Source: a bacterium (lineage in GTDB: Bacteria > Bacteroidota > Bacteroidia > Bacteroidales > FEN-979). From it: a DNA stretch of 64,000 nucleotides. Made by a program: the position numbers and the translations under genes. Position 1 is the stretch's first letter. Each line of letters begins with the position of its first letter. A model generated the notes under the pieces. That model did not search any database. It was not told the origin of the DNA and was given only the letters and a program-made list of their open reading frames with translations. The stretch spans positions 391-64,390 of the forward strand of contig JBAXRT010000001.1 of the NCBI GenBank assembly GCA_037131065.1. The letters run 5' to 3'. Positions 5,766 to 58,828 of the stretch are shown here, piece after piece.

Positions 5766-5964
5766 ACAGGGACAACACATTTTCATAATAACTTTCTTTG
5801 CTGCTTTTTTGGTGGTTTGTAATTAATTTTTAATTTTACTCCAACGGAGCAATATCCCGACATATGTTGTTATGTCCTGCAACCGGCTTGCGCACAAAAA
5901 TGTAACAGGCTATGCTTCAGAATTTTATGAATTTGCTGAAAAACAGATAATAAAAGTTACATAT

Positions 5965-5980
5965 TAATTCCCGGGAATTA
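5965..5980. promoter_or_regulatory. Perfect 16-bp palindrome TAATTCCCGGGAATTA abutting the start codon of the multihaem cytochrome gene
   Basis: Exact inverted repeat. Its last base is the A of the ATG at 5980. Confidence 0.3.
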
Positions 5981-7470: not shown

Positions 7471-7505
7471 CACTCGTCACTCTTAAATCGTCACTCGTCA
7501 CTCAA
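7471..7505. repeat. Heptamer tandem array, 5 units: CACTCGT CACTCTT AAATCGT CACTCGT CACTCAA
   Basis: Read directly. It fills the gap between convergent genes. The stop codon of the minus-strand gene (7498..7500) lies inside the array. Confidence 0.85.
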
Positions 7506-9585: not shown

Positions 9586-9652
9586 AAGGTCATTGGAAAT
9601 TGGTATTAGGGTGAACAGGAAATGTTTTATAATAACAAAAATACTAAGAATT

Positions 9653-9751
9653 AATGCAGGAATGCAGTTTTTAGTCCGCAGTCCGCAGTCTTCAGTCTTC
9701 AGTCTGCAAATTCATCAACATCACTTCATCACTGCGTCACAATTTCATCAC
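9653..9751. repeat. Composite short-tandem-repeat tract: AATGCAGG x2, then AGTCCGC x2, AGTCTTC x2, AGTCTGC x1, then degenerate TTCATCA-containing units
   Basis: Read directly. It lies in the divergent intergenic region between the T9SS propeller gene and guaB. Confidence 0.85.
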
Positions 9752-9880
9752 AGTATTATTACACAAATCACCAATTTTCATTGACTTGTCCGTATTGTAA
9801 CCAAATGACTAATTTTTTCTCCCCAAACCATAATAATTCCGCCACTTTTCAGTTATAATTAAACCGATTCTATTTTTTTA

Positions 9881-9888
9881 TAAATTTG
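9881..9888 (+). promoter_or_regulatory. Bacteroidota-type -7 promoter box TAAATTTG (TAnnTTTG) for guaB
   Basis: Matches the TAnnTTTG consensus, 18 nt upstream of the ATG at 9907. Confidence 0.5.
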
Positions 9889-9906
9889 CACCCTAATTTT
9901 GGGCTT

Positions 9907-11373
9907 ATGTTCCTTAATTCAGATAAATTCATGGGGGAGGGGTTGACTTATGACGATGTGCTGCTTGTACCAGCCTATTCGAAGGTTTTACCCCGCGAGG
10001 TGAATGTGGACACCAGACTTACCAGAAATATTAAACTGAATATTCCCATCGTTTCTGCTGCCATGGATACCGTCACCGAATCGGGTATGGCTATCGCCAT
10101 GGCCCAGGAGGGAGGGATCGGCGTGCTTCACAAGAACATGTCGATTGAGGCACAGGCGATACATGTGCGCAAGGTCAAAAGGGCCGAGAACGGCACCATC
10201 CTTGACCCTGTCACCCTGCATGAGGATGCCTTGGTGAACGAGGCCCTTGCGATGATGAAGGAGCACTCAATCGGCGGCATCCCCGTTATCAACGAAAATC
10301 ATGAACTGGTCGGGATCGTTACCAACCGCGACCTGAGGTTTGAACGCGACCTGATGCGGCCTGTCTCCGAAGTGATGACACGCAAGGTGATCACCATCAG
10401 TGAATTTACGGGTTTTGAAAAGGCAGAAGCCATACTCCAGCAGCACAAGATCGAAAAGCTGCCGGTGGTTGATAAGAAGAACAAGCTCGTTGGGTTGATC
10501 ACTTATAAGGATATTATCAAGATCAAGGCCAGGCCAAACGCCTGTAAGGATAACCTCGGACGACTGCGTGTTGCAGCTGCCGTTGGTGTTGCGGGCGATA
10601 CACTCGACAGGGTGGCTGCCCTTGTAAGGGAGGGGGTTGACGCTATTGTCATCGACACGGCGCATGGTCACTCCTTCTACGTGATCGAAATGGCAAAAAA
10701 AGTTAAAACAGCTTTTCCCAATGTCGACCTGATCGTAGGGAATATCGGTACGGCAGAAGCTGCGAAAGATCTTGCCGCAGTCGGTGTCGACGCCGTCAAG
10801 GTCGGGATCGGGCCCGGTTCCATCTGTACAACGCGCATCATTGCCGGGATCGGTATCCCGCAACTCTCGGCGATCTACAATGTGTCTGAAGCGCTCAGGG
10901 GAACAGGTATTCCTGCCATTGCCGACGGGGGCATCCGTTATACGGGCGATATCGTGAAGGCGCTTGCAGCCGGAGCCCACTCAATCATGGCTGGCTCGCT
11001 CTTTGCCGGTGTGGACGAATCACCCGGTCAGACGATCATATTCGAAGGGAGAAAATTCAAGACCTACCGCGGCATGGGATCGATCGAGGCCATGCAGATG
11101 GGTTCGAAAGACCGTTACTTCCAGGATGTTGAGGAAGATATTAAGAAACTTGTCCCGGAAGGGATTGTCGGAAGGGTACCTTACAAGGGAAGTCTATCCG
11201 AGGTTATTTACCAGATGGTAGGAGGTTTGAGATCAGGGATGGGCTACACAGGTTCCGCCACGATCGATGAACTCCAGAAAGCCAAATTCATGAAGATCAC
11301 TTCGGCAGGCGTTACCGAAAGTCATCCGCACGATGTAACGATCATCAGTGAAGCGCCCAATTACAGCAGGTAA
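9907..11373 (+). CDS. guaB: IMP dehydrogenase
   Basis: [14 protein letters not shown]-terminus, a tandem CBS insert, the catalytic loop [11 protein letters not shown], and [17 protein letters not shown]. Start trimmed from the TTG at 9886 to the ATG at 9907. Confidence 0.95.
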
Positions 11374-11413
11374 TCAAAATTATCAGACGATAAATCAAAA
11401 TAAAACAGAGACT

Positions 11414-13423
11414 ATGAATCGCTTGAAATCACAACTTTTAGTGTTATTAGTTATTGCTTTTGCAGTACCGGTCATTGCCCAGGTAAATAATAATGAAACC
11501 CTTATGACCATTGCGGGGAAAAAGGTGACCGTTGGGGAATTCCTTACCATCTACCAGAAGAATAACGGGAACAAGGATAAGACAGAGGGGAAAAGCAATT
11601 TCATCGACAGGAAATCCCTCGATGAGTACCTTGATCTTTTCATCAATTTTAAACTGAAGGTTAAGGAAGCGGAGGAGCTTGGACTCGACACCCTCACCTC
11701 CTTCCGTAATGAACTGAACGGCTACCGCGACCAGCTTGCCAAACCTTACTTTACAGATGAGGCAACACTCGACAACCTCCTGACCGAGGCCTGGGAGCGT
11801 TCGAAATATGATATCAGGGCCAGCCACATTTTTTTCCGCCTGAAACAAGATGCCCTTCCTGCCGACACCCTTGCCGCTTACAACAAGGCCATCAAGATAA
11901 GTGAACGTGCTACGAACGGAGAGATGTTTGAGAAACTTGCTGTTACCTACTCAGAAGATCCTTCGGCAAAAGACCGGGAAGCCAACCAGCAGCATCCCCT
12001 TATTAAGGGTAACATGGGCGACCTGGGATTCTTTACCGTTTTTGATATGGTTTACGCTTTTGAAAATGCCGCTTACACTACTCCTGTCGGCAAGGTTTCC
12101 GGCATTGTCCGTACCGATTACGGTTACCATATCATCAAGGTAACTGAAAAGAGACCAGCCTTCGGAAAGGTGGTTGTGGCCCATATTTTCCTGGCCCTTC
12201 CCAAGGCAGCAAAGACCGAGGATTCCCTGCGCGTGAAACTGCGGATTGATTCGATCTACCAGAAACTGAAGAATGGAGCAAAGTTCGAAGATCTCGTAAA
12301 ACAATATTCAGAGGATAAGGGTTCTGCCGCAAAGGGGGGAGTGCTTCCCAAATTCGGCGTGAATCGGATGGTTCCTGAGTTCATCGATGCGATCTACACT
12401 CTCTCCAACGTAGGAGATTACTCCAAGCCCACACTTACCCCTTATGGCTGGCACATCATCAAGCTGGTCGAAAGGAAAACCCCGGGAGCCCTGGCTGAGG
12501 AGAAGACCGAACTGAAACAGAAGGTAGTCAAGGATTCGCGCGGGAACCTTCCCAAAGAGGTGGTCATGAAAAAAATCCGTAAGGAATATAGCCTTACCGA
12601 ATATCCTGAGGCCAAAGCAGAGTTCTATAAGATCGTGACCGACACCATCTTCTTTGGGAAATGGGATGCCGCCGTTGCCAGGGATATGGTCAAACCATTG
12701 TTCAAGATCGGGACCCTGACTGTCAGACAGAAGGAGTTTGCCGATTACCTGGCCTCCAAACAACGGAAACGCGACAAGGAACCCATCGAACTGTTTGTAA
12801 ACAAAATGTATAGTGAATTTCTGGATGATAACCTGATCAAGTGGGAAAACAGCCATCTCGAGCAGAAGTATCCTGAATTCAAAGCACTGATGGGTGAGTA
12901 CCGCGACGGTATCCTTCTCTTTGACCTTACCGATAAAAAAGTCTGGTCAAAGGCGGTGAAGGACACAACGGGCCTCAAGGAATTCTATGAAAAGAACAAG
13001 TCAAATTACATGTGGGATACCCGTGTTGACGCTTCTATTTATACCCTGAAGAAAGAGGGAAACCCTGATAAGGTGAAGAACTTCATCACATCGGGACTTT
13101 CCGATACCGACCTGCTGAAGGAGATCAATACTGATTCGCTTAAGCTCCTTTCGATAGAAAACGGGAAATTCTCCAAGCACGACAACAAACTCATCGACGG
13201 TGTAGCATGGCAGCCGGGATTCTCAAAAGATATGACTTCCGATTCCGCCACTGTTTTCATCTATATCCGGAGTGTCCTGAAACCGGAACCCAAAGCGCTC
13301 AGTGAAGCCCGCGGACTTATTACCGCCGACTATCAGAATTTCCTTGAGAAAGAGTGGATCAGGTCGCTGAGGGAAAAATACAAAGTGGTCGTCAATCGGG
13401 AAGTTCTGGCCAAAATCAAGTAG
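11414..13423 (+). CDS. Periplasmic PpiC/parvulin-type peptidyl-prolyl isomerase (PpiD/SurA-like chaperone)
   Basis: Start trimmed to MNRLKSQLLVLLVIAFAVPVIAQ (signal peptide). Parvulin-like segments are present (…GDLGFFTVFDMVYAFENAAY…GYHIIKV and …GWHIIKL). Confidence 0.85.
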   Translation: MNRLKSQLLVLLVIAFAVPVIAQVNNNETLMTIAGKKVTVGEFLTIYQKNNGNKDKTEGKSNFIDRKSLDEYLDLFINFKLKVKEAEELGLDTLTSFRNELNGYRDQLAKPYFTDEATLDNLLTEAWERSKYDIRASHIFFRLKQDALPADTLAAYNKAIKISERATNGEMFEKLAVTYSEDPSAKDREANQQHPLIKGNMGDLGFFTVFDMVYAFENAAYTTPVGKVSGIVRTDYGYHIIKVTEKRPAFGKVVVAHIFLALPKAAKTEDSLRVKLRIDSIYQKLKNGAKFEDLVKQYSEDKGSAAKGGVLPKFGVNRMVPEFIDAIYTLSNVGDYSKPTLTPYGWHIIKLVERKTPGALAEEKTELKQKVVKDSRGNLPKEVVMKKIRKEYSLTEYPEAKAEFYKIVTDTIFFGKWDAAVARDMVKPLFKIGTLTVRQKEFADYLASKQRKRDKEPIELFVNKMYSEFLDDNLIKWENSHLEQKYPEFKALMGEYRDGILLFDLTDKKVWSKAVKDTTGLKEFYEKNKSNYMWDTRVDASIYTLKKEGNPDKVKNFITSGLSDTDLLKEINTDSLKLLSIENGKFSKHDNKLIDGVAWQPGFSKDMTSDSATVFIYIRSVLKPEPKALSEARGLITADYQNFLEKEWIRSLREKYKVVVNREVLAKIK

Positions 13424-13434
13424 AGGATTGTACG

Positions 13435-14271
13435 TTGAAAAAACTCCTGATCTTTTTGCTGGTTATCCTGGCCTCATGCTCATACTTCAAAAAAAAAACG
13501 GAGCGGGTGGTAGCGAGGATTCTGGATGAATACCTGTATGAGTCCGACCTCAGGGGTGTGATACCCCCGGGGACCAGCGCCAAAGACAGCGTTACCCTTA
13601 CCAAAAATTATATTGACAACTGGATCAGGCAGAACCTGGTGATCCGGCAGGCGGAGAACAACCTGACCAGCGAAGAGATGGATTTTTCCAGGCAGCTTGA
13701 GAATTACAAGGAGGCCCTGATCATCTTCGAATATGAGAATGCACTGGTGAAACAGAAACTCGATACGCTCATCACCGAAGAGGAGATTGAGACCTACTAC
13801 GACGCGAACCAGAACAACTTCCTGCTGAAAGACAACATCGTTCAGATCCAGTATGTGAAACTCCCGCTGAAATCGGCTTACACCAGGCAGATCAAGAAAC
13901 TCCTGGTATCTGACAGGCCGGAGGATAAAGTGAAATTGCCCGATCTGTGTGAGAAATATGCAACCGATTACTTCCTCGATGACCAGAACTGGCTCTTTTT
14001 TGGCGATCTCCTCAAACAGATCCCCATCAAAACATATAACCGGGAGGAGTTTCTGAAAAATCGCAGGGAACTGGAATACCAGGATTCCCTTTTCGTTTAC
14101 CTGGTGAGATTCAAGGATTTTAAGATCAAGGAGAGCGTCTCCCCGCTTAGTCTTGAGAAGCCCCGTATCCGCGATATTATCCTTAACAAGCGGAAGATGG
14201 AGCTGATCAGCCGGATGCAGGAGGATATTTATCAGAAAGCGCTGAAGAAAAACGAATTTGAGATTTATTAA
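13435..14271 (+). CDS. Hypothetical lipoprotein in the PPIase cluster
   Basis: In-frame TTG at 13435 gives LKKLLIFLLVILASCSYF (lipobox-like LASC). No catalytic motif recognised. The start is uncertain. Confidence 0.5.
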   Translation: MKKLLIFLLVILASCSYFKKKTERVVARILDEYLYESDLRGVIPPGTSAKDSVTLTKNYIDNWIRQNLVIRQAENNLTSEEMDFSRQLENYKEALIIFEYENALVKQKLDTLITEEEIETYYDANQNNFLLKDNIVQIQYVKLPLKSAYTRQIKKLLVSDRPEDKVKLPDLCEKYATDYFLDDQNWLFFGDLLKQIPIKTYNREEFLKNRRELEYQDSLFVYLVRFKDFKIKESVSPLSLEKPRIRDIILNKRKMELISRMQEDIYQKALKKNEFEIY

Positions 14272-15660: not shown

Positions 15661-15673
15661 ACCGCGAGGATAT

Positions 15674-16639
15674 ATGCACTATTCCAGTGATGTTGAAGCT
15701 GTTGATGCCCTTGTCAGAAAATATTCTCTTCTGAAGTCCGAGATCGCAAAGGTGATTGTTGGTCAGGATGAAGTCATCAAAAACCTGCTGATCTCCATAT
15801 TCTGCAAGGGTCATTGTTTACTTGTTGGCGTCCCCGGACTGGCCAAGACGTTGATGGTTAATACCATCTCAAAAGCATTGGGACTCAGTTACAGCAGGAT
15901 CCAGTTCACACCCGACCTGATGCCTTCCGACATCATTGGAACAGAGATTCTTGATGAGGCGCGCAAATTCAGGTTTATTAAGGGACCGGTTTTTGCCAAC
16001 ATCATTCTTGCCGATGAGATTAACCGGACACCACCAAAGACCCAGTCAGCCCTTCTGGAGGCCATGCAGGAGAAGGCGGTAACCGTTGCTGGGACCACCT
16101 ACCACCTCGAGGAACCGTTCTTTGTGCTGGCCACCCAGAACCCGATCGAACACGAAGGAACTTATCCACTGCCGGAGGCACAACTCGACCGCTTTATGTT
16201 CAACCTCTGGCTCGATTATCCTTCGGGCGATGAGGAGATTCAGATCGTAAAGGCGACCACGACCGAAAAATCCATCACGCCGGAGATAGTAGTATCGGCA
16301 GAAGAGATCCTCTTCTTTCAGAACCTCATCAGAAAGATCCCTGTCCCAGATAATGTTTACCATTATGCAGTCAGCCTGGTCGGACACACCAGGCCGCAGG
16401 CGGATGGACCCGATAGCTGGGCTAAAAGGTACCTCACATGGGGTGCCGGACCACGGGCCTCCCAGTACCTTATCCTTGGCGCCAAATGCAACGCCGTCAT
16501 TAATGGAAAATATTCCCCCGATAAGGAAGATGTGAGGGCAGTTGCAAAACCCGTGCTCCGCCACAGAATTGTGAGGAACTATAAGGCCGAAGCTGAGGGG
16601 ATCCAGCCTGATCATATCATTGAACACTTTTTATCCTGA
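15674..16639 (+). CDS. MoxR-family AAA+ ATPase
   Basis: Walker A GVPGLAKT and Walker B ILADEINR, plus a MoxR-type C-terminal region. Start trimmed to MHYSSDVEAV. Confidence 0.9.
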   Translation: MHYSSDVEAVDALVRKYSLLKSEIAKVIVGQDEVIKNLLISIFCKGHCLLVGVPGLAKTLMVNTISKALGLSYSRIQFTPDLMPSDIIGTEILDEARKFRFIKGPVFANIILADEINRTPPKTQSALLEAMQEKAVTVAGTTYHLEEPFFVLATQNPIEHEGTYPLPEAQLDRFMFNLWLDYPSGDEEIQIVKATTTEKSITPEIVVSAEEILFFQNLIRKIPVPDNVYHYAVSLVGHTRPQADGPDSWAKRYLTWGAGPRASQYLILGAKCNAVINGKYSPDKEDVRAVAKPVLRHRIVRNYKAEAEGIQPDHIIEHFLS

Positions 16640-20265: not shown

Positions 20266-21208
20266 ACAGCCTTCCCTGCCAGGTTTGCTGCCTCTCCAGC
20301 TCCTTTTCTATCAGCCTTAACACTGCGTCGTAGCGGATCAGTCCCCATGCGCTCTCATGAAGCAGCCGGGGAGGAACCTCCCCCGAAAATCGTTCAATAA
20401 CCACCGCCGGGTTAAGATGCTCAATAAAGGAGATGATAAACCGGATATAATCTTCCAGAGTGAAGAGATGAAAATCAGCGGGGTTCTCCAGAAACTCTTT
20501 CTCCAATTTGGTTCTTTTAACGATCTGAAGCTGGTGAAATTTGATGGTATCGACCGGCAGGGTTGATATGGTTGCTGCTTCGTCGCTCATTTCATCAAGA
20601 CTTTCACCCGGCAACCCGAATATGAAGTGAGCCCCTGTCCTGATTCCCAGCCGGTGGCTCTTTTCAATCACCTCGCGGCTCAGGGCAAAATCATGACCCC
20701 GGTTGATCCTGTGGAGGGTCCGGTCGTAACACGACTCCACACCATATTCAACCTGGATGAAATATCGTTGTGAGAGTTCTGCAAGGTATTCCAGCTTTTC
20801 ATCATCCACACAATCGGGCCGGGTCCCGATCACCAGTCCGACAACGCCGGGAAAGGAGAGCGCCTCAGTATAGAGCCTCCTCAGGTCGGAAAGTGGAGCA
20901 TAGGTATTGGAGTAAGGCTGGAAATAGACCAGGAATTTCCTGGCCCTGCGGTAACGAACTGCATGAAACTCAATCCCCTTCGCAATCTGTTCGTGAAGGG
21001 GCTCCTTCGGGTTGCAATAGGAGGGGTTGAAGGCATCGTTGTCGCAGTAGGTGCATCCACCGGTGCTCTTTGAACCATCGCGGTTCGGACATGTAAAACC
21101 GGCGTCAACGACAACTTTCTGAATTCTTCCGCCGAAAGTTTTCCTTACATATTCCGTGTAGGAATTGAACCTGCGATTATGTCCCCAAACAAACGGTTCT
21201 TCCTTCAA
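20258..21208 (-). CDS. Radical SAM protein, TIGR01212 family
   Basis: FGGRIQKVVVDAGFTCPNRDGSKSTGGCTYCDN is characteristic of this family. The track ORF start (21370) would overlap the upstream POT gene. Start trimmed to an in-frame TTG (residue L55), which is uncertain. Confidence 0.75.
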   Translation of the reverse strand: MKEEPFVWGHNRRFNSYTEYVRKTFGGRIQKVVVDAGFTCPNRDGSKSTGGCTYCDNDAFNPSYCNPKEPLHEQIAKGIEFHAVRYRRARKFLVYFQPYSNTYAPLSDLRRLYTEALSFPGVVGLVIGTRPDCVDDEKLEYLAELSQRYFIQVEYGVESCYDRTLHRINRGHDFALSREVIEKSHRLGIRTGAHFIFGLPGESLDEMSDEAATISTLPVDTIKFHQLQIVKRTKLEKEFLENPADFHLFTLEDYIRFIISFIEHLNPAVVIERFSGEVPPRLLHESAWGLIRYDAVLRLIEKELERQQTWQGRLSS

Positions 21209-21285
21209 AATTCGTTGTTCAATATTAAAAAAAATCCGGCGAAGGATTGCTTCGCCGGACAAAGATAACAAGGATCGGTGATCTT

Positions 21286-23269: not shown

Positions 23270-23785
23270 ATGAACCTCCAGGATTTTCAGAAAACGGTCT
23301 ACCCTTTGAAAGATAAACTCTTCCGCTTTTCGAAACGATTGCTTGAGCGGACCGAAGAGGCGGAAGATATTGTCCAGGAGGTCTTCATCAGGTTATGGAA
23401 CCGGCGTGAAAAACTGGATGAATACAGGAGCGTGGAGGCACTTGCGATGATAACAGCAAAAAACCTCTGCCTCGATAAACTGAGGACTCGGCGGTTTGCT
23501 TTAGAGAGCCTGGATGATAAGAAGAGTTATATCGACCGGATACCGGGGGAGACCAGGGCTGACCATTCAGACCTCATCCATGGGATACACCAGGCCATCC
23601 GCCAGCTTCCCGAACTGCAGCAGATGGTCATCCACCTTCGCGATATCGAGGAGTATGAGTTTGATCAGATCGCCGAGATGCTGGAGATGAATGAAAATGC
23701 AGTGAGGGTAAACTTGTCGAGGGCCAGGAAAAGGGTCCGTGAAATATTGACTAACGCCAAAGTATATGAATACCAGAGAAATTGA
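23270..23785 (+). CDS. ECF-type RNA polymerase sigma-70 factor
   Basis: Region 2 (AEDIVQEVFIRLW) and region 4 (MVIHLRDIEEYEFDQIAEMLEMNENAVRVNLSRARKR). Confidence 0.9.
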   Translation: MNLQDFQKTVYPLKDKLFRFSKRLLERTEEAEDIVQEVFIRLWNRREKLDEYRSVEALAMITAKNLCLDKLRTRRFALESLDDKKSYIDRIPGETRADHSDLIHGIHQAIRQLPELQQMVIHLRDIEEYEFDQIAEMLEMNENAVRVNLSRARKRVREILTNAKVYEYQRN

Positions 23786-24362
23786 GAAACTGCTTGAAAG
23801 GTACGAGGAAGGACTGACCTCCATCCCCGAGGAAAAGCTGCTGAAGGAGTTCTTCAGTGGAAGCGATGTGCCTGAGCACCTCCGTCCCTACGCCTCCTTA
23901 TTCAACTATTTCGACCAGTCAAAATCCGAAACGATTACCAATCCTGATTTCGATGTTAAAACGGACCATCTTCTTTCACACCCAAATCTAAAATCTGAAA
24001 TCGTAAATCGTAAATCCATCCGTCACTCGTCACTCGTCATTCGTCATTCGTCACTCGTCACTCGTCACTATGCCTTGGGTATTGCCGCCTCTGTTCTTCT
24101 AATTGTCGGACTCTTCTTTACTTTCCGCCAGGACATTTTCAGAAAGAAAAACACGGTGACCTATACCGAACAGCAGGAACAGGCTTATGCCGAGGTCCAA
24201 AAGGCGCTTTATACGGTTTCTGCCAACTTAAACATTGGACTTGACCAGTTCCGGCGCCTCGAGCCGATCGGGAAAGCCGTTGACCAGGTACAAAAAATTT
24301 CAAAGTTCTATCAATACCAGCCCATCATTATTAACCCGGACACCCCCACAGTACGTCCATAA
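23766..24362 (+). CDS. Probable single-pass anti-sigma-like partner of the ECF sigma (hypothetical)
   Basis: Overlaps the sigma gene stop by 20 nt. It has a soluble N-terminus followed by one TM (YALGIAASVLLIVGLFF). An 84-bp heptamer array is embedded in-frame just before the TM. Confidence 0.55.
   Translation: MNTREIEKLLERYEEGLTSIPEEKLLKEFFSGSDVPEHLRPYASLFNYFDQSKSETITNPDFDVKTDHLLSHPNLKSEIVNRKSIRHSSLVIRHSSLVTRHYALGIAASVLLIVGLFFTFRQDIFRKKNTVTYTEQQEQAYAEVQKALYTVSANLNIGLDQFRRLEPIGKAVDQVQKISKFYQYQPIIINPDTPTVRP
23984..24067. repeat. Heptamer tandem array, 12 phase-coherent units inside a CDS: AAATCTA AAATCTG AAATCGT x2 AAATCCA TCCGTCA CTCGTCA x2 TTCGTCA x2 CTCGTCA x2
   Basis: Read directly and anchored to the ORF frame. 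It is 84 bp (4 x 21), so the reading frame is preserved. It encodes NLKSEIVNRKSIRHSSLVIRHSSLVTRH. Confidence 0.9.
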
Positions 24363-28632: not shown

Positions 28633-28704
28633 TTCGTGATGGTCGAGATGTCCGTGATGGTCGATACGAACATTTCGAACATCTCGATCGTGACGATCAT
28701 TACG
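28633..28704. repeat. Nonamer-period tandem tract (about 8 units: TTCGTGATG GTCGAGATG TCCGTGATG GTCGATACG AACATTTCG AACATCTCG ATCGTGACG ATCATTACG)
   Basis: Read directly. CGTGATGGTCGA occurs twice, 18 bp apart. The reverse strand contains CGTCAC. The tract fills the convergent gap between the DUF2461 gene and psd. Confidence 0.75.
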
Positions 28705-29370: not shown

Positions 29371-30216
29371 TCAGATTGCGTTGCGCAAAAATAAATATAA
29401 AAATACAAACGGTGCAGAAATTAAAATGGTGTCGAACCGGTCGAGGATCCCCCCGTGTCCGGGCAGAATCGTGCCGGAATCCTTGATGTTGAGGCTTCTC
29501 TTGAACAACGATTCGACAAGGTCGCCCAGCGTCCCGAAAACCAGCACCAGGATTGTAATGGCGAACCAGTCGGCCATTTGTACCTCCGGGACCAGGAAGG
29601 AGAAGCCCAGGGCGGTAAGCAGCGCTACGACGGCGCCGGCAATGGTCCCTTCCCAAGTCTTTTTCGGGGATATCCGTTCAAAGAGCTTATGCTTCCCGTA
29701 TTGCTTTCCGTAAAGGTAAGCTCCGGTATCGTAAAACCAGGTCAGAATGAAATAACCGGTGAGGATAGCCGGAAAACCAAGGAAATGAACCTTATCCGGC
29801 CCGTTCATCAGGTTCAGCAGCGAAAAAGGCAGTGCGATATAAAGGATTCCCAGGTTGGTCATCGCAACATTTACCAGCGGGGTGCTTTTTTTTCGGTAGA
29901 TTTCAAAAATAAAAGTGAGGAAAAACAGGGGCAACGGAAAGATGAATGGAAGCAGGTTGATCCAGCCACGTGAAAAAGTGAAACTGACAAAATGAATCCA
30001 GACAATGCAAAGGTACAGGAGCGCTCCGGCGATGGTCCCGTAATACCGCTGGGGAGAGCAGCTTTCGGAAGAGATAAGCTGGTAGAATTCCCATAATCCG
30101 GCTACCGTGATCACAAAAAATATTCCTGCAACAAGCCCGTCATTCAGGTACAATGCAGCAAAGAGAATAAATACCATGGATAGACCGGTAATGGTCCTTG
30201 CCCAGAAATTATTCAT
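29371..30216 (-). CDS. cdsA: Phosphatidate cytidylyltransferase
   Basis: Signature SLFKRSLNIKDSGTILPGHGGILDRFDT; polytopic. Confidence 0.9.
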   Translation of the reverse strand: MNNFWARTITGLSMVFILFAALYLNDGLVAGIFFVITVAGLWEFYQLISSESCSPQRYYGTIAGALLYLCIVWIHFVSFTFSRGWINLLPFIFPLPLFFLTFIFEIYRKKSTPLVNVAMTNLGILYIALPFSLLNLMNGPDKVHFLGFPAILTGYFILTWFYDTGAYLYGKQYGKHKLFERISPKKTWEGTIAGAVVALLTALGFSFLVPEVQMADWFAITILVLVFGTLGDLVESLFKRSLNIKDSGTILPGHGGILDRFDTILISAPFVFLYLFLRNAI

Positions 30217-30448
30217 TGGATTGAAATCGGTTGACGATTATTTTTGCCTTTAGGATATCATCCCTTTTTACATGAACTTCAATATCGCCGAAACTCAGGT
30301 ATGAGGAGTCCTGCTTATTGATAACGATTGCCGGGATTTCTTCTGCTTCAAGCAGATCTTTCAGCATCTCTGCCTGGTACAACTGGGAGGTGCTGAATGC
30401 AGATTCCCAGTGTTCTTTATCGGGGTCACTTATCGAACGTAGCATCAT
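30209..30448 (-). CDS. Small DUF2007-like protein (putative signal-transducing fold)
   Basis: 79 aa with the pattern …LYQAEMLKDLLEAEEIPAIVINKQDSS…, as in DUF2007 (recognised from memory). Confidence 0.55.
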   Translation of the reverse strand: MMLRSISDPDKEHWESAFSTSQLYQAEMLKDLLEAEEIPAIVINKQDSSYLSFGDIEVHVKRDDILKAKIIVNRFQSNE

Positions 30449-37267: not shown

Positions 37268-38275
37268 TTAATTCATCGAATTGATCTTCAGAGTGTCATG
37301 GAAAAAGGTTTCCCGCTGAGGCACCTTTTTCATCAGGTTCTCGTAAAGGAGTGCACCCGGATCCCTGGGGATTTTCAGGGTGTAGATCTTACCGGATTTA
37401 TTCGGCAACATATAGCTCTGGATCCAGGGGTTGAGCTCCCGAAGCACACGGTAATTGGTCTTCAGCGTAAGGGCGAGGGCTGGAAGATCCTTTACGGTAC
37501 TGTCGATGGTCACCAGTTTTGTCGATACCTGGGGATAGAAGTCCTGTTCAATAGTATAAAATCCATACCTGACGGGGTTATTATAGACCTGCTTGATGGC
37601 AATGATCCTGAACAGGTAACGTGAGGTCTCCTCATTAAGATAGAGATCGTAATAGTTTGATACTTTTTGCTTCTGAAGCGCTTTGGCGATGCCATCCGGA
37701 CCCCGGTTGTAGGCGGCGGCGACCAGCGTCCAGTTTTTATATTGCTTCCAGCCATCCTTGAAATATTCACAGGCTGCCTGTGTTGCCTTTTCCATGTTAT
37801 ATCTTTCGTCAACATCCGGGTTGATCTCCAGTCCGTAATTCTGGCCAGTGGCCTTGAGAAATTGCCAGGGCCCCTCGGCGCCTGCAGGTGAAGTAACATT
37901 CCCCAGATTGCTCTCGGCTACGGCAAGGAATTTGAAATCATCTGGAATACCGTTTTTCTTCAGGATCGGTTCGATAACAGGAAACCAGCGGTAGGCGCGC
38001 TTGAACATTTGAAGAGTGGAAGAGTGCATGAAGGTGCCTGCCATGATCTCACGCTCCATCGCCTCCCTGACATAATACAGGTTCATCGGAACCTCTTCCC
38101 CGGCAAAAGTTATCTTCACGGGAACCTCCGGTACAAATACCTTCGTGTATTTGCGGAAAAGTTTGTGGTATGCCTCATCAATCGTATTGTTATCCGGGAT
38201 CATGGCAAAAACGAAGATCACCAGTACAATGCCCATCACCACTCCGGTGGCCAGGTACCCGATTCTGTTTTTCAT
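37268..38275 (-). CDS. Membrane-anchored lytic transglycosylase (SLT domain, MltD-like)
   Basis: Start trimmed to MKNRIGYLATGVVMGIVLVIFVF. SLT catalytic region LAVAESNLGNVTSPAGAEGPWQF…YNRGP. Confidence 0.75.
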   Translation of the reverse strand: MKNRIGYLATGVVMGIVLVIFVFAMIPDNNTIDEAYHKLFRKYTKVFVPEVPVKITFAGEEVPMNLYYVREAMEREIMAGTFMHSSTLQMFKRAYRWFPVIEPILKKNGIPDDFKFLAVAESNLGNVTSPAGAEGPWQFLKATGQNYGLEINPDVDERYNMEKATQAACEYFKDGWKQYKNWTLVAAAYNRGPDGIAKALQKQKVSNYYDLYLNEETSRYLFRIIAIKQVYNNPVRYGFYTIEQDFYPQVSTKLVTIDSTVKDLPALALTLKTNYRVLRELNPWIQSYMLPNKSGKIYTLKIPRDPGALLYENLMKKVPQRETFFHDTLKINSMN

Positions 38276-38310: not shown

Positions 38311-38408
38311 AGTCCGCAGTCTGCAGTCTGCAGTCTGCAGCCAGCAATACCAAATCTAAAATCTAAAATCTTAAATCAATTCGTCACTCGTCAATAGTCA
38401 TTCGTCAC
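38311..38408. repeat. Heptamer tandem array, 14 phase-coherent units in three modules: AGTCCGC AGTCTGC x3 AGCCAGC | AATACCA AATCTAA x2 AATCTTA AATCAAT | TCGTCAC TCGTCAA TAGTCAT TCGTCAC
   Basis: Read directly and anchored to flanking ORF ends. It fills most of the gap between the rfbC stop (38412) and the transglycosylase start (38275). Confidence 0.95.
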
Positions 38409-38411
38409 TGG

Positions 38412-38954
38412 TTAAAACGGCGAAACAAAATCCCTGAACAGCGGCGACACTTTGTCTTTTTCCGAGATCACAGGTTCTGCAATTCCCCAGTCTATTCCGA
38501 GATCCGGATCAGACCAGAGAATACTCCCTTCCGAAGGCTTGTTATATACATTTGTGCATTTGTAGAAAAAGATCGTGTCATCCTCCAGGGTAACAAATCC
38601 GTGGGCAAATCCCGACGGGATCCAGTACATCCATTTGTTTTGTCCCGATAAAACGATCGATTCCCATTTTCCGTATGTGGAAGAGTTTTTCCTGATATCG
38701 ACTGCCACATCGAGGACGGACCCGCGCATCACGCGGACCAGCTTACCCTGATCATAGGGCGGGGCCTGGAAATGAAGTCCCCTCAACACACCCTGTTTTG
38801 ATTTAGATTCATTGTCCTGGACAAATCTCAGATCCAGGCCATGCTTCAGCAACCGGGCATGGTTGTAGGATTCAAAGAAATATCCCCGTTCATCCTCAAA
38901 CACATCAGGCTTGATGATCAGCAAGCCCTCCAGTGGCGTCTTTATTATCTCCAT
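38412..38954 (-). CDS. rfbC: dTDP-4-dehydrorhamnose 3,5-epimerase
   Basis: FEDERGYFFESY, LRGLHFQ and SGFAHGF motifs. No rfbA, rfbB or rfbD gene is nearby. Confidence 0.92.
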   Translation of the reverse strand: MEIIKTPLEGLLIIKPDVFEDERGYFFESYNHARLLKHGLDLRFVQDNESKSKQGVLRGLHFQAPPYDQGKLVRVMRGSVLDVAVDIRKNSSTYGKWESIVLSGQNKWMYWIPSGFAHGFVTLEDDTIFFYKCTNVYNKPSEGSILWSDPDLGIDWGIAEPVISEKDKVSPLFRDFVSPF

Positions 38955-38962
38955 TGTTCGAT

Positions 38963-39026
38963 AATTTGAAAATTTGAAAATTTGATGATGTGAAGATGAA
39001 TTTTCAAATCTTCAAATCTTCAAATT
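38963..39026. repeat. Octamer tandem array arranged as an inverted repeat: AATTTGAA x2 AATTTGAT GATGTGAA GATGAATT TTCAAATC x2 TTCAAATT
   Basis: Read directly. The left and right halves are near reverse complements and could form a ~20-bp imperfect hairpin. It lies between the lpd stop and the rfbC start. Confidence 0.85.
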
Positions 39027-39037
39027 CATTGAATAGT

Positions 39038-40426
39038 CTATAGGTGTATACATTCACCATACGCCTGCGCCACCGCCTCCATGATGGCTTCCGAGATGGT
39101 TGGGTGAGGATGGACAGCCTCGATGATCTCCCTTCCGGTTGTCTCCAGTTTCCTTGCGACCACCACTTCAGCAATCATTTCGGTCACATTTTCACCGATC
39201 ATATGGGCGCCAAGCCATTCGCCGTACTTTGCATCGAAGATCACTTTGATGAATCCCTCCCTGTTTCCGGCGGCAGTCGCTTTGCCCGATGCCGTAAACG
39301 GGAATTTCCCGATAAGGATCTCATGTCCGGCCTCTTTTGCAGCTTTTTCCGTCATCCCTACGGATGCGATCTCCGGATGAGTGTAAGTACATCCGGGAAT
39401 ATTTCCGTAATCAAGCGGCTCGACCTCCTTTCCTGCAATATGTTCTACACATATGATCCCTTCATGGGAAGCAACATGGGCAAGTGCCGGTCCCCTCACA
39501 ATATCACCGATTGCATAATACCCCCCTACATTCGTCCTGTAGAAATCATCGACTGCGACTTTCCCTTTTTCAACCTTGATGCCAGTCTCTTCAAGACCAA
39601 GGCCCTCAGTGTTCGGGGAGATCCCGACCGCGGAGAGAACAACATCGGCTTCAATGGTCTCCTCCCCCTTCTTGGTTTTGACCAGCACCTTGCATCCGTT
39701 TCCGGTTGTATCCACCGATTCAACAGAAACTCCTGTCATAACCTTCATTCCGGCTTTCTTGAAGGAGCGTTCGAGGGCCTTGGAGACCTCCTCATCCTCA
39801 ACCGGTACTATGTTTGGCAATACCTCGATTAGTGTAACTTTCGTTCCGATTGAATGATAGAAATAGGCAAACTCACTGCCGATGGCTCCTGATCCAACAA
39901 CCACCATGGATGCGGGTTGTTTCTCAAGGGTCATTGCTTCGCGGTATCCGATGATCTTCTTACCATCCTGCTTTATGTTGGGAAGTACCCTGGAACGGGC
40001 GCCCGATGCGAGGATGATATGGCTGGCTGTGTAACTGGTTGTCACCCCCTTTTCATCGGTCACATCGACCGCTTTGCCAGGTTTGATCGTTGCAATACCT
40101 TTGATCAGTTCGATCTTGTTTTTCTTGAACAAGAAGGTGACCCCCTTGCTCATATTATCGGCTACCTCTCGGCTTCTCCTGACCATGGCAGGAAAATCGG
40201 CTTTTGCCTCTCCTGCTGAGATGCCATATTCGGAGGCATGTTGGATATATTGAAATACCTGGGAACTTTTCAGTAAGGCTTTGGTTGGGATACAGCCCCA
40301 GTTAAGGCATATCCCCCCGATCTCCGCGCGCTCGATAACAGCGGTTTTGAAACCAAGCTGTGCGGCACGGATAGCAGCAACGTATCCCCCGGGACCGCTG
40401 CCGATAACGAGAATATCAAAATTCAT
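39038..40426 (-). CDS. lpd: Dihydrolipoyl dehydrogenase
   Basis: FAD motif GSGPGGYVAAIRAAQLG, redox disulfide CLNWGCIPTK, C-terminal HPHPTISEA. Confidence 0.95.
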   Translation of the reverse strand: MNFDILVIGSGPGGYVAAIRAAQLGFKTAVIERAEIGGICLNWGCIPTKALLKSSQVFQYIQHASEYGISAGEAKADFPAMVRRSREVADNMSKGVTFLFKKNKIELIKGIATIKPGKAVDVTDEKGVTTSYTASHIILASGARSRVLPNIKQDGKKIIGYREAMTLEKQPASMVVVGSGAIGSEFAYFYHSIGTKVTLIEVLPNIVPVEDEEVSKALERSFKKAGMKVMTGVSVESVDTTGNGCKVLVKTKKGEETIEADVVLSAVGISPNTEGLGLEETGIKVEKGKVAVDDFYRTNVGGYYAIGDIVRGPALAHVASHEGIICVEHIAGKEVEPLDYGNIPGCTYTHPEIASVGMTEKAAKEAGHEILIGKFPFTASGKATAAGNREGFIKVIFDAKYGEWLGAHMIGENVTEMIAEVVVARKLETTGREIIEAVHPHPTISEAIMEAVAQAYGECIHL

Positions 40427-43172: not shown

Positions 43173-43227
43173 TCCTCATATAGTCATTATATGATCAATA
43201 ACTTAACCTCTTTTCCCTTTGACCTTT

Positions 43228-43261
43228 TTCCAATTTCCAATTACTTAATGACCTAATGACA
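43228..43261. repeat. Short tandem duplications TTCCAAT x2 and TAATGACC/TAATGACA directly upstream of thrH
   Basis: Read directly. It is similar in style to the other arrays but uses different units. Confidence 0.5.
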
Positions 43262-43266
43262 AACGT

Positions 43267-43869
43267 ATGTACATAATCTGCTCCGACCTTGAAGGTGTTT
43301 TCGTACCGGAAGTGTGGATCAATGTGGCCGAAAAGACCGGTATCCCTGAACTGCGCAGGACTACCCGCGATGAACCCGATTATAACCTGCTGATGCGCCA
43401 GCGCATTAAAATCCTGGATCAGCACGGACTGAAGTTGCATGATATTCAACACGTCATTGCTCAGATAAAACCCCTGCCGGGCGCTTTGGAGTTTATTGGT
43501 TGGGTCAAGGAACTTACTCAACTGATCGTTGTCTCCGATACCTTCATCCAGTTCGCCGATCCCCTCATGAAACAGCTTGGCAGGCCTACATTGTTCTGTC
43601 ACTCCCTGATTATGGATGAGACCAACCGGATCATCGATTATAAACTCCGGCAGCCGGACCCGAAACGAAAAACGGTGGAGGCATTACAGGGATTGAAATA
43701 TGAGGTCATTGCCATGGGCGATTCATACAACGACATCAGCATGCTTAAACAGGCTGAAACAGGGATCCTTTTCCGCCCCCCTGAAAATGTTATTAAAGAC
43801 TATCCGCAGTTTCCTGTCTGCACCAATTATGAAGAACTCAGAGCATTACTGACACCAATTATCGGCTGA
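43267..43869 (+). CDS. thrH: ThrH-type HAD phosphatase (phosphoserine phosphatase / homoserine phosphotransferase)
   Basis: MYIICSDLEGVFVPEVWINVAEKTGIPELRRTTRDEPDYNLLMRQRIKILDQHGLKL closely parallels the Pseudomonas ThrH N-terminus as I recall it. GDSYND HAD motif present. Confidence 0.8.
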   Translation: MYIICSDLEGVFVPEVWINVAEKTGIPELRRTTRDEPDYNLLMRQRIKILDQHGLKLHDIQHVIAQIKPLPGALEFIGWVKELTQLIVVSDTFIQFADPLMKQLGRPTLFCHSLIMDETNRIIDYKLRQPDPKRKTVEALQGLKYEVIAMGDSYNDISMLKQAETGILFRPPENVIKDYPQFPVCTNYEELRALLTPIIG

Positions 43870-44633
43870 TGGAGATCCGTTTTGATAATAAGGTCGTTCT
43901 CGTGACCGGAGCCTCCAGGGGGATCGGTAAAGCCACCGCCATGTCGTTCGCAGTCTCAGGAGCTGCGGTCATGGTCCATTATAAATCGAACACAGAAGCC
44001 GCCGACCTTCTTTTAAAGTCACTCCGGGGTAAGGATCACCGGAAAATAGCCGCAGACCTTGCCGTACCAGTAGATGTCGAGCGACTGGTTGCTGAAACCA
44101 TTCGTGTATTCGGAAGGATCGATATCCTGGTCAACAATGCCGGGATCTTTCGTGAGATTGAAATGGCCGGGCTTGATTTTTCTTCCTTTCAGAAGTACTG
44201 GACCGAAACGTTGGATGTCAATCTCCGTGGGCCGGCATACCTCTCCTTCCTGGCCGCTAAAGAGATGATCAGGACCGGCGGTGGAAAGATCATCAACATT
44301 TCATCACGTGGCGCCTTCCGCGGCGAACCCGATGCCTGGGCCTATGGAGCAAGTAAGGCCGGATTAAACGCCCTCGGGCAGAGTATGGCAAAAGCGCTGG
44401 CCCCACAAAAGATCTATGTCTACACCCTTGCACCCGGTTATGTAAACACCGACATGGCTGCCTTTAACCTGACAGGCGAAAAGGCGCAGCAGACCGCAGC
44501 GCAGAGCCCGATGAACCGTGTGGCTCAGCCTGAAGAGATCGCCCGTGCAGTCCTGATGCTCGCAGCCGACGGTACTGAATACATGACCGGCTGCATCCTC
44601 GATATGAATGGTGCCTCTTACCTCCGAACATAG
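43869..44633 (+). CDS. Short-chain dehydrogenase/reductase (FabG-like)
   Basis: TGASRGIGKA, NNAG and YGASKAGL (YxxxK). Its start overlaps the thrH stop (TGATG). Confidence 0.85.
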   Translation: MEIRFDNKVVLVTGASRGIGKATAMSFAVSGAAVMVHYKSNTEAADLLLKSLRGKDHRKIAADLAVPVDVERLVAETIRVFGRIDILVNNAGIFREIEMAGLDFSSFQKYWTETLDVNLRGPAYLSFLAAKEMIRTGGGKIINISSRGAFRGEPDAWAYGASKAGLNALGQSMAKALAPQKIYVYTLAPGYVNTDMAAFNLTGEKAQQTAAQSPMNRVAQPEEIARAVLMLAADGTEYMTGCILDMNGASYLRT

Positions 44634-44682
44634 TTTCTGTCACTCGTCACACGTCATTCGTACTTTGTTGAGTGTCATGTTT
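44634..44682. repeat. Degenerate heptamer array, 7 units: TTTCTGT CACTCGT CACACGT CATTCGT ACTTTGT TGAGTGT CATGTTT
   Basis: Read directly. It begins immediately after the SDR stop codon. Confidence 0.7.
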
Positions 44683-44733
44683 TGGATATCATAAGCCATT
44701 TAATGATCTTTGTTCCCTCAAATCAGGTACAAT

Positions 44734-49787: not shown

Positions 49788-49826
49788 AGGAGTTTTGGTT
49801 TTGGTGAGGAAAGGTTTATAGCGGTG

Positions 49827-49834
49827 CAAAAGTA
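49827..49834 (-). promoter_or_regulatory. -7 box TACTTTTG (reverse strand) for gcvP
   Basis: TAnnTTTG match, 39 nt upstream of the ATG at 49787. It lies inside the N-terminal extension of the track ORF, which supports the trimmed start. Confidence 0.5.
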
Positions 49835-49855
49835 CCAAGTTTGACCAAATTAAAC

Positions 49856-49889
49856 AAAAAAAGCTGCCTTCGTTTGAAGACAGCTTTTT
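49856..49889 (-). terminator. Rho-independent terminator after the PKD/T9SS gene
   Basis: On the reverse strand, stem AGCTGTCTTC / GAAGGCAGCT (one G-U pair), a 4-nt loop, then seven U residues. Confidence 0.65.
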
Positions 49890-49912
49890 CAGGGTTCAGT
49901 AAACAGGAATTA

Positions 49913-54258: not shown

Positions 54259-54324
54259 ACACGCTTCCTGTTATAATAAACACGGGAAAACCAAAAGGTT
54301 GCCCGGGTAAGAGAGGGTTTAAAG

Positions 54325-54359
54325 AAAAAAAAAGAGGCTGTGCGAAGAATACAGCCTCT
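54325..54359 (-). terminator. Rho-independent terminator after hppA
   Basis: On the reverse strand, a 9-bp perfect stem AGAGGCTGT / ACAGCCTCT, a 9-nt loop, then a run of eight U residues. Confidence 0.7.
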
Positions 54360-54382
54360 CTGTTGTGATGCCCCTGCGGGGA

Positions 54383-58785: not shown

Positions 58786-58828
58786 TTTACTAAATGAATT
58801 TCGCTGTTTCACCATTTCGCTATTTAAT

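Follow-up and report, generated by a model that had tools for sequence, protein, structure and literature searches.

Short-period tandem repeats on both sides of an orphan rfbC gene in a Bacteroidales genome: probably fast-turnover intergenic arrays rather than gene-cassette boundaries

Why should a single dTDP-4-dehydrorhamnose 3,5-epimerase gene, rfbC, lie between two clusters of short tandem repeats with no rfbA, rfbB or rfbD gene beside it? The question is raised by a 64,000-nt stretch of contig JBAXRT010000001.1 (48.8% G+C), here called the window and the frame for all positions below, whose proteins have their closest named homologues among proteins of Bacteroidales metagenome-assembled genomes (MAGs). 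A preliminary description of this DNA had observed that rfbC, and other units of one or two genes, are bracketed by repeat arrays, and had proposed that the arrays either delimit independently acquired or shuffled gene cassettes or act as insulators, that is, as terminator plus promoter spacers between unrelated transcription units. The analysis presented here leads, with a probability of about 0.6, to another answer: the arrays are lineage-specific, slippage-prone intergenic tandem repeats of short period (7-9 nt, mostly 7) that turn over on the timescale of species and resemble the long simple sequence repeats (LSSR) and short tandemly repeated repetitive sequences (STRR) of other bacteria.

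The gene, its neighbours and the arrays between them, the latter delimited with Tandem Repeats Finder (TRF), are as follows.

38412-38954, minus strand: rmlC/rfbC, dTDP-4-dehydrorhamnose 3,5-epimerase (TIGR01221, 238 bits; cutoff 155.75)
39038-40426, minus strand: lpd (dihydrolipoyl dehydrogenase), adjoining rfbC upstream (TIGR01350, 560 bits)
37268-38275, minus strand: SLT/MltD-like lytic transglycosylase (SLT), assigned by homology, the downstream neighbour of rfbC, with uvrA next
38311-38340, no strand: heptamer array AGTCCGC/AGTCTGC (AGTCYGC), 4.3 copies, 95% matches; the minus, gene-sense strand reads GCAGACT
38352-38377, no strand: heptamer array AAATCTA, 3.7 copies
38381-38409, no strand: degenerate TCGTCAC-type heptamer array, 4.1 copies, 77% matches, a member of repeat family D1
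38963-38985, no strand: octamer array AATTTGAA, 2.9 copies
38999-39025, no strand: octamer array AATCTTCA, 3.4 copies
38957-39025, no strand: inverted octamer array pair (I11), arms 38957-38982 and 38999-39024, 85% complementary

The bracketing of rfbC by heptamers and octamers holds, with coordinates and units that agree between TRF and direct reading, and the gene is indeed an orphan, no rfbA, rfbB or rfbD having turned up among the window's open reading frames (ORFs) scanned against Pfam and NCBIfam (a few remaining ORFs were named solely through precomputed Pfam matches of homologues in related loci). An exact look-up of the window's RmlC protein in the assembly index returned no match. 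On the heptamer side, three arrays make up a 99-nt block (38311-38409) that stops 2-3 nt from the rfbC stop codon (38412), and the array nearest the gene (38381-38409), read in the sense of rfbC, is GTGACGA, so that TGA occurs in each of the three frames. The octamer pair on the other side takes up 64 nt of the lpd/rfbC spacer, and 8 nt separate it from the start codon of rfbC (38954). Its two arrays are mutual reverse complements, a point absent from the preliminary description, and together fold into an AU-rich hairpin of 22-25 bp (-23.8 to -26 kcal/mol, z about -3.7 to -3.85, on either strand). The strands of this hairpin are asymmetric (G-U in the sense strand, A-C in the opposite one), which might have pointed to a structure at the RNA level, but energies and z-scores are similar on both strands and permit no conclusion from it.

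Are the arrays real, and are they more than chance? Strict arrays of period 7-8 number seven in the window and zero in each of 100 dinucleotide-preserving shuffles; five of the seven are intergenic, and the remaining two form one block in the tolerant linker of an ORF. Period 7 is dominant (TRF; range 7-9), and the units recur within the 64 kb, the TCGTCAC type at five loci, AAATCTA/AAATCGT at three and AGTCYGC at two. That the arrays might be assembly or chimera artefacts of a MAG is hardly credible: repeats can in principle mislead assemblers, and nothing more specific speaks for such an origin, but an independent Logan assembly (L156; related loci are designated by L numbers) is 100% identical to the window over positions 5788-13932 (8.1 kb), including two array blocks, and this identity argues that the arrays are not products of assembly. 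Furthermore, many independent metagenomes have related arrays in the corresponding spacers, and each array is shorter than a sequencing read.

The behaviour of the arrays among relatives provides evidence for turnover. Relatives were gathered through the SLT protein, and the related loci covering each rfbC junction have an SLT 61-89% identical to that of the window. In other species the same rfbC-flanking spacers hold different units, namely AATGCAGG in L001 and L006, and CGTGATGA plus GTGAAGA in L005. CAATGCAGR arrays occur at orthologous spacers of L008, L010 and L023, and GYGGACAR arrays at those of L007, L010, L011 and L035, the last also with CCCTGTTA. Further relatives have no array at the orthologous spacers, which when array-free measure 23-75 nt. 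Indeed, about 13-21 kb each of L002, L013, L015, L016, L157 and L158 contain the same genes and no strict arrays, so that array richness belongs to the genome and not to the locus. Nearly all arrays of the relatives are intergenic. At about 85% nucleotide identity copy number already differs, with five copies of AGTCYKC in the window and three in L159, which has other arrays in addition; at 99.6-100% identity (L010/L012, L008/L009 and the window/L156) the arrays are unchanged. Two features of L002 suggest how arrays begin and end: a AATGCAGG-like tract is apparently decayed, and at the site of the window's expanded octamer arms stands a single-copy AATTTGAAGAT...GCAAATTC, which on sequence comparison is probably the precursor of the octamer array pair. 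In L034 (880-1046), the lpd/rfbC spacer has a G+C-rich palindromic element of about 165 nt, rich in GGGAGGG/CCCTCCC, and no short-unit arrays. The AATGCAGG arrays upstream of SLT (L001 83-134; L006 803-840) contain an ATG in every unit, and gene callers have placed the SLT start inside the array (P0001, 344 aa as against 335 aa), from which it follows that arrays can create upstream or alternative start codons.

Is rfbC itself a mobile cassette? The preliminary description had named retention of the same neighbours in relatives without arrays as the finding that would tell against this idea, and such retention is what the synteny check found. The gene is adjacent to lpd and to SLT-uvrA in 13 of 13 related loci at each junction, the window not counted, and the order lpd-rfbC-SLT-uvrA is colinear also in the array-free L002, L013, L015 and L016. 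Nor is the composition of rfbC unusual, its GC (0.477) and GC3 (G+C at third codon positions; 0.569) lying within one standard deviation (SD) of the window means (0.491 +/- 0.026 and 0.586 +/- 0.050). A foreign origin of the bracketed genes generally was considered from GC, GC3 and codon-usage distance and rejected: all values are ordinary, that of the SDR (short-chain dehydrogenase/reductase) gene described below being about +1.9 SD in GC, and the expectation that bracketed genes would deviate in composition is not borne out. The preferred reading is that rfbC is a resident gene, both of whose spacers have probably carried such repeats since early in the history of the clade.

Whether other genes behave as cassettes is a separate question, which requires the remaining arrays of the window and the genes beside them.

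7498-9585, minus strand: type IX secretion system (T9SS)-sorted BNR/Asp-box propeller gene (Pfam), variable in presence with respect to L157 and L158
7471-7497, no strand: TCGTCAC/AAATCGT-type tract (TRF), filling the entire 27-nt spacer of the convergent cytochrome and T9SS genes
9653-9751, no strand: composite block of AATGCAGG (two copies), AGTCYKC (five) and a CATCAC-type unit (four to five) in the divergent T9SS/guaB spacer (TRF)
23984-24069, plus strand: AAATCTA/AAATCGT arrays followed by seven copies of CGTCACT, in frame inside an ORF (TRF)
28635-28699, no strand: inverted 9-mer-type repeat pair in the convergent DUF2461/psd spacer (TRF; hairpin of -35 kcal/mol)
43227-43260, no strand: weak arrays TTTCCAA (2.3 copies) and TTAATGAC (two copies), upstream of thrH (TRF; pair I7)
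43869-44633, plus strand: SDR oxidoreductase gene, absent in L002 and L010, present in L015
44639-44663, no strand: degenerate TCGTCAC-type tract directly after the SDR stop codon (family D1)

The T9SS gene is bracketed as had been described, by 7471-7497 on one side and by 9653-9667, 9673-9707 and 9713-9751 on the other, and so is the thrH-SDR pair (43227-43260 and 44639-44663), the tracts in the latter case being short and degenerate, with 2-3 copies. In L157 and L158, whose cytochromes are 85% and 80% identical to that of the window, the T9SS gene is missing between cytochrome and guaB, and these two genes follow one another across 120 nt (L157, 11492-11610) or 212 nt (L158, 11492-11702) free of arrays, all other genes being colinear over about 20 kb; the inserted segment thus corresponds to about 7471-9821, with arrays near both ends. 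In L159, whose T9SS protein is 82% identical, the cytochrome gene is separated from the T9SS gene by an additional DUF1697 gene, bounded by TCGTCAC-type tracts GTCACTCGTAAATCGTCAT and TTCGTCACTAGTCATTAGTAATTCGTCAC, both of which resemble the single 27-nt spacer of the window. The interval between thrH and a second gene for a pyridoxal-phosphate (PLP) enzyme, PLP2, is likewise variable, with the SDR gene in the window (43869-44733), nothing in L002 (4091-4139), an Lrp/AsnC-like regulator gene on the opposite strand in L010 (4364-5289) and both genes in L015 (1367-2049), where they are present without any arrays. As to the surroundings of these genes, the next-closest homologues of the T9SS propeller are just 48% identical; a stretch of about 70 nt proximal to the promoter of guaB, with TAAATTTG in it, is conserved across the window, L157, L158 and L159; upstream of guaB, L159 has the same TTTCCAA and TTAATGAC unit types as the window at 43227-43260; and in L010 a 96-nt ACGTCCC/TCGTCCT array lies directly upstream of the PLP gene.

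The possibility that the arrays are junction sequences of acquired or shuffled cassettes of one or two genes, with homologous or illegitimate recombination between like units inserting or deleting a gene, draws its support from these cases: the T9SS gene is absent from L157 and L158 and is flanked by the sole arrays in the first 21 kb of the window, which share TCRTCAC-type units in the same orientation; the DUF1697 gene of L159 has such a tract at each end; and a TCGTCAC-type tract follows the variable SDR gene. In addition, both rfbC spacers are hot-spots for arrays, and the lpd-rfbC-SLT adjacency is specific to the clade, being absent where SLT identity is 41-50%. Against this stand the invariance of rfbC in the 13 relatives and the lack of any overall association between arrays and synteny breakpoints in the window ([[3,4],[8,12]], Fisher p = 1.0, or 0.59 when spacers shorter than 20 nt are excluded). 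Many breakpoints have no array (DUF2007, PLP1, the lipase gene and the lpd/PLP1 junction), L015 has the variable genes of the thrH-PLP2 interval and no arrays, and arrays occur at an invariant junction and within an ORF; these are findings of the kind that the preliminary description had itself listed as refuting its proposal. The would-be cassettes occur in both orientations, some are housekeeping genes whose composition is normal, and no recombinase, integrase or transposase was found among the window ORFs scanned. A conserved recombination-site structure is not found at every junction, since units, lengths and symmetry differ from one to the next. Integron cassettes with their attC sites offer the closest parallel, in that single genes are bracketed by repeat-containing sequence and some are present or absent between relatives; they differ in that here the scanned window ORFs include no integrase, the genes do not share one orientation, no attC-like bipartite palindrome is present, housekeeping genes are involved and the focal rfbC is fixed. 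Thus the proposal that arrays delimit cassettes agrees with the presence and absence of the T9SS and SDR genes, fails for rfbC and does not extend to arrays in general, and as an explanation of the arrays it is distinctly unlikely.

Two further arrays deserve mention in this context. The DUF2461/psd junction is kept in all relatives, eight of which have a spacer of 11-28 nt. The array at 23984-24069 lies inside a gene (23766-24362) for an anti-sigma-like membrane protein, adjoined by a gene for an extracytoplasmic function (ECF) sigma factor (23270-23785), and encodes ...HPNLKSEIVNRKSIRHSSLVIRHSSLVTRH... in the linker that precedes the transmembrane helix; compared with 11 homologues, this poorly conserved linker has been replaced and lengthened by an 11-aa insertion. 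An in-frame array at such a place fits expansion wherever extra sequence is tolerated. The small DUF2007 gene (30209-30448) presents the converse situation, overlapping both neighbours and having no arrays nearby; by tblastn it is undetected at this position in eight of nine relatives, the gene calls give it as absent in L002 and present in L005, and it looks like a gene indel without repeats.

Do the arrays instead serve as functional cis elements, whether insulators, mRNA-stabilising or processing hairpins like those of repetitive extragenic palindromic (REP) elements, promoter spacers or tandem protein-binding sites? Inverted array pairs make up about a third of array-bearing spacers (lpd/rfbC of the window, three in L010, and those of L023 and L029) and fold far better than shuffles (L010, z = -6.45 and -4.67; L023, z = -4.5; lpd/rfbC of the window as given above), the DUF2461/psd hairpin reaching -35 kcal/mol. 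Arrays of one unit family have also persisted, within subclades, in the two spacers beside rfbC, and binding to heptamer repeats is known for proteins of the cold-shock type (discussed in PMC4679880). Moreover, the last unit of the AAATCTA array together with the following G reads, on the minus strand, TAGATTTG (38351-38358), a perfect Bacteroidetes -7 box created by the array 76 nt upstream of SLT; the motif TAnnTTTG occurs 46 times in the window as against 30.5 expected, typically upstream of genes. However, significant folding is confined to inverted pairs, and stable palindromic hairpins form at 38957-39025, at 28635-28699 and in several relatives' arrays, but not at 38311-38409 or in most direct arrays. 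The orthologous spacers without arrays have z about 0, so the structure is not conserved; the unit sequence at one and the same spacer differs between species; and close array-free relatives have the same genes with spacers of 23-37 nt, into which a terminator together with a promoter would not fit. Within the window, the orientation of arrays with respect to flanking genes is inconsistent. Sites resembling intrinsic terminators number 22 in the window against 20.9 expected, none of them in array spacers, and the octamer hairpin at 38957-39025, being AU-rich and without a T-run, is not a terminator of this type. A sigma-70 promoter scan gave no excess over chance and no signal at the arrays. 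Neither terminators nor sigma-70 promoters nor conserved structure support the insulator proposal of the preliminary description, and a cis-acting function of any of these kinds is possible but unlikely. Canonical terminator-like hairpins with stem and T-run (e.g. AAAAAAAGCTGCCTTCGTTTGAAGACAGCTTTTT) occur elsewhere in the window, at 49788-49912 and 54259-54382, downstream of a second T9SS gene (with a PKD domain) and of the ECF sigma operon, which suggests that the genome uses ordinary terminators where they are needed.

A related suggestion, that the arrays are contingency loci for phase variation whose copy number switches or tunes expression of a neighbour, has a precedent in Haemophilus, where heptamer promoter repeats are described as tuning expression, and some arrays of the window are indeed promoter-proximal or 5' of genes. 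It is nevertheless very improbable, given that no unit-size indels separate the members of three near-identical pairs (99.6-100%) from different samples and assemblies, albeit a small sample, and that the flanked genes are mostly housekeeping genes.

The mechanism proposed for repeats of the LSSR/STRR kind would run as follows. Arrays would form, and gain or lose copies, through slipped-strand mispairing or unequal exchange where extra bases are tolerated and, as one alignment suggests, would often start from a small palindrome or a short motif already in place; should both arms of such a palindrome expand, an inverted array pair, and with it a long hairpin, would result. Blocks of about 30-60 nt are also copied between loci of one genome, as shown by shared higher-order variant patterns. 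Family D1 (33 nt) has six copies (7466, 24019, 24033, 24047, 38380 and 44636) with the common unit order CAC-CAC-CAT, shared at three loci, the 61-nt composite at 38352-38412 (family D3) is 84% identical to 23991-24051, and the 37-nt stretch at 38311 (family D4) is 86% identical to 9673-9709; such patterns imply copying rather than mere growth in place. Once formed, arrays are stable between near-identical strains, differ between species in unit and copy number and apparently decay to ordinary spacer, as the comparisons among relatives show. Arrays of this origin would be neither recombination sites that define cassettes nor required terminators or insulators, and their effects on transcripts (hairpins, the fortuitous -7 box, stops in all frames) would probably be incidental.

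Several observations weigh against this account. Slippage alone fails to explain the copying of composite blocks between loci. All five TCGTCAC-type tracts of the window have one strand orientation, and GC skew yields no clear assignment of replication strands by which this could be explained. Three gene indels, those of the T9SS gene, the L159 DUF1697 gene and the SDR gene, are edged by like-oriented TCGTCAC-type tracts. Finally, in the conserved 11-gene block DUF2461-psd-cdsA-LUD-ftsH-rsfS-LOG-uvrA-SLT-rfbC-lpd, a lenient detector (one that missed the window's degenerate 9-mer inverted pair at DUF2461/psd) found arrays only in the SLT/rfbC (7 of 14) and rfbC/lpd (5 of 14) spacers and in 0 of 85 other spacers, even though the SLT/rfbC and rfbC/lpd spacers, when array-free, are no longer than the other spacers of the block. 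This restriction to the flanks of rfbC may reflect few ancestral events, since unit families are common to subclades, yet both events flank rfbC. A further reading, itself quite unlikely, is that the composite heptamer blocks are a self-propagating, non-autonomous mosaic family, copied between intergenic sites by some templated process, that favours certain junctions (both sides of rfbC, for instance) and whose dispersed like-oriented copies serve as substrates for gain and loss of the T9SS, DUF1697 and SDR genes. Such a family may be related to (GTGACGA)n/(TCGTCAC)n hairpin elements of Acidobacteriota, Chloroflexota and other phyla and, if it exists, would constitute a repeat-driven route of gene-order plasticity in Bacteroidales.

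How do slippage-prone arrays of this kind compare with known repeat systems? The whole window gave 0 matches to Rfam 15 at the gathering score, and the arrays are not CRISPR arrays, whose repeats of 23-50 nt are separated by unique spacers; here the units are contiguous and 7-9 nt long. The STRR of cyanobacteria are heptamer tandem repeats. With LSSR and STRR the window's arrays share a head-to-tail arrangement, 7 nt as the commonest period, occurrence beyond chance, a mostly intergenic location, restriction to lineages, variability between relatives and the use of few favoured units per genome, each at many loci. They differ in that different units are concatenated into composite blocks and that many inverted pairs give long periodic hairpins; furthermore, the host belongs to an uncultured freshwater Bacteroidales clade, for which abundance is known for 64 kb. 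Among long simple sequence repeats with units of 5-11 nt, heptamers form the most frequent class (Mrazek et al. 2007, as cited in PMC4679880). Direct repeats of TAACTGA are found in Beggiatoaceae, Cyanobacteria and five Bacteroidetes (MacGregor 2015, PMC4679880). The Beggiatoaceae repeats resemble those of the window as intergenic heptamer direct repeats, sometimes beside other heptamer arrays, with relatives in which the same neighbourhood is repeat-free and the spacers shorter, and with one unit shared across distant phyla, here (TCGTCAC)3. In Beggiatoaceae, however, the repeats all point one way and lie just a few nucleotides upstream of a start codon, whereas the arrays of the window have no consistent position or orientation, and the units themselves differ. 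In Geobacter metallireducens, a four-copy GGACCGG element occurs at 49 sites, both between and within genes, alongside a five-copy MTYCTGA element (PMC2700814). The likeness there is a genome-specific heptamer family at many intergenic sites and also within genes, whereas in Geobacter the copy number is fixed at 4 or 5 and the elements are read as regulatory sites, and those of the window vary in copy number and composition. A REP element, finally, consists of one imperfect palindrome of about 35 nt and is mobilised in enterobacteria by REP-associated tyrosine transposases (RAYT). Like REP elements and bacterial interspersed mosaic elements (BIME), the arrays are intergenic, hairpin-forming, mosaic and dispersed, often between co-directional or convergent genes; unlike them, their arms consist of tandem units of 7-9 nt, most lack palindromic symmetry, and the window showed no RAYT.

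For annotators, this means that such tracts should be treated as fast-turnover repeats, neither cassette boundaries nor terminators, which can lengthen spacers and make hairpins, fortuitous promoter boxes, upstream ATGs, all-frame stops and extra residues. The biology of heptamer repeats, so far described chiefly in cyanobacteria, in Beggiatoaceae and in a small number of cultured genomes, is thereby extended to an uncultured freshwater Bacteroidales clade.

The TCGTCAC unit has a distribution well beyond this clade. (TCGTCAC)3 occurs in at least 119 contig stretches of GTDB species-representative genomes, the hosts among the matches listed including Chloroflexota, Acidobacteriota, Verrucomicrobiota, Planctomycetota, bacteria of the candidate phyla radiation (CPR) and several Bacteroidales MAGs. 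These loci often contain GTGACGA...TCGTCAC inverted pairs, and among the 119 listed the period is 7 in 207 of 243 arrays, the other units being diverse. Exact three-copy arrays were counted in IMG/VR at 25 loci for TCGTCAC, 25 for AAATCGT and 6 for AGTCTGC, as against 4, 7 and 12 for composition-matched control heptamers. A privileged status of TCGTCAC as a unit shared across phyla was accordingly rejected, the enrichment being modest (2-6 fold) with no evidence of a special mechanism; since every heptamer tried was found in three copies in IMG/VR, and since the TCGTCAC loci have diverse units, heptamer arrays appear to be general and TCGTCAC modestly favoured. An apparent excess of TCGTCAC arrays directly after the ends of minus-strand genes in the 119 listed loci was set aside as at least partly an artefact, because GTGACGA has TGA in all frames and ends any ORF that enters the array. 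In the literature library searched, no paper had the GTGACGA/TCGTCAC tandem sequence. Among Pyrinomonadaceae and other Acidobacteriota (L041, L054, L069, L074, L114, L134, L142, L153 and others), there is a conserved hairpin, CAGTGACGAGTGACGAGTGACAAG-loop-CTCGTCACTCGTCACTCGTCACTG, that recurs in many species, often ending about 10 nt before an ATG, which looks like a REP-like family built from the TCGTCAC heptamer. Composite arrays like those of the window are found in L154 and L089, both from the Bacteroidales MAG AlinenLipids_bin-5057, and in L071, from MAG MFD04716. L154 combines, in this order, a GTGACGA array, five copies of AAATCGT and four of TCGTCAC, its array part being 84% identical to window positions 23984-24051, and L071 has, one after the other, three copies of TAATCGG, three of AACTGCAA and four of TCGTCAC.

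Elsewhere in the window, gaps at 13424-13677, 15661-16045 and 20591-21285 that resembled pseudogenes in a gene map restricted to ATG starts proved to be intact genes with other start codons. The spacer between a nucleoside symporter gene and thyA contains a further weak 8-mer array, ATTTCGCT, at 58798-58825 (3.5 copies, 70% matches).

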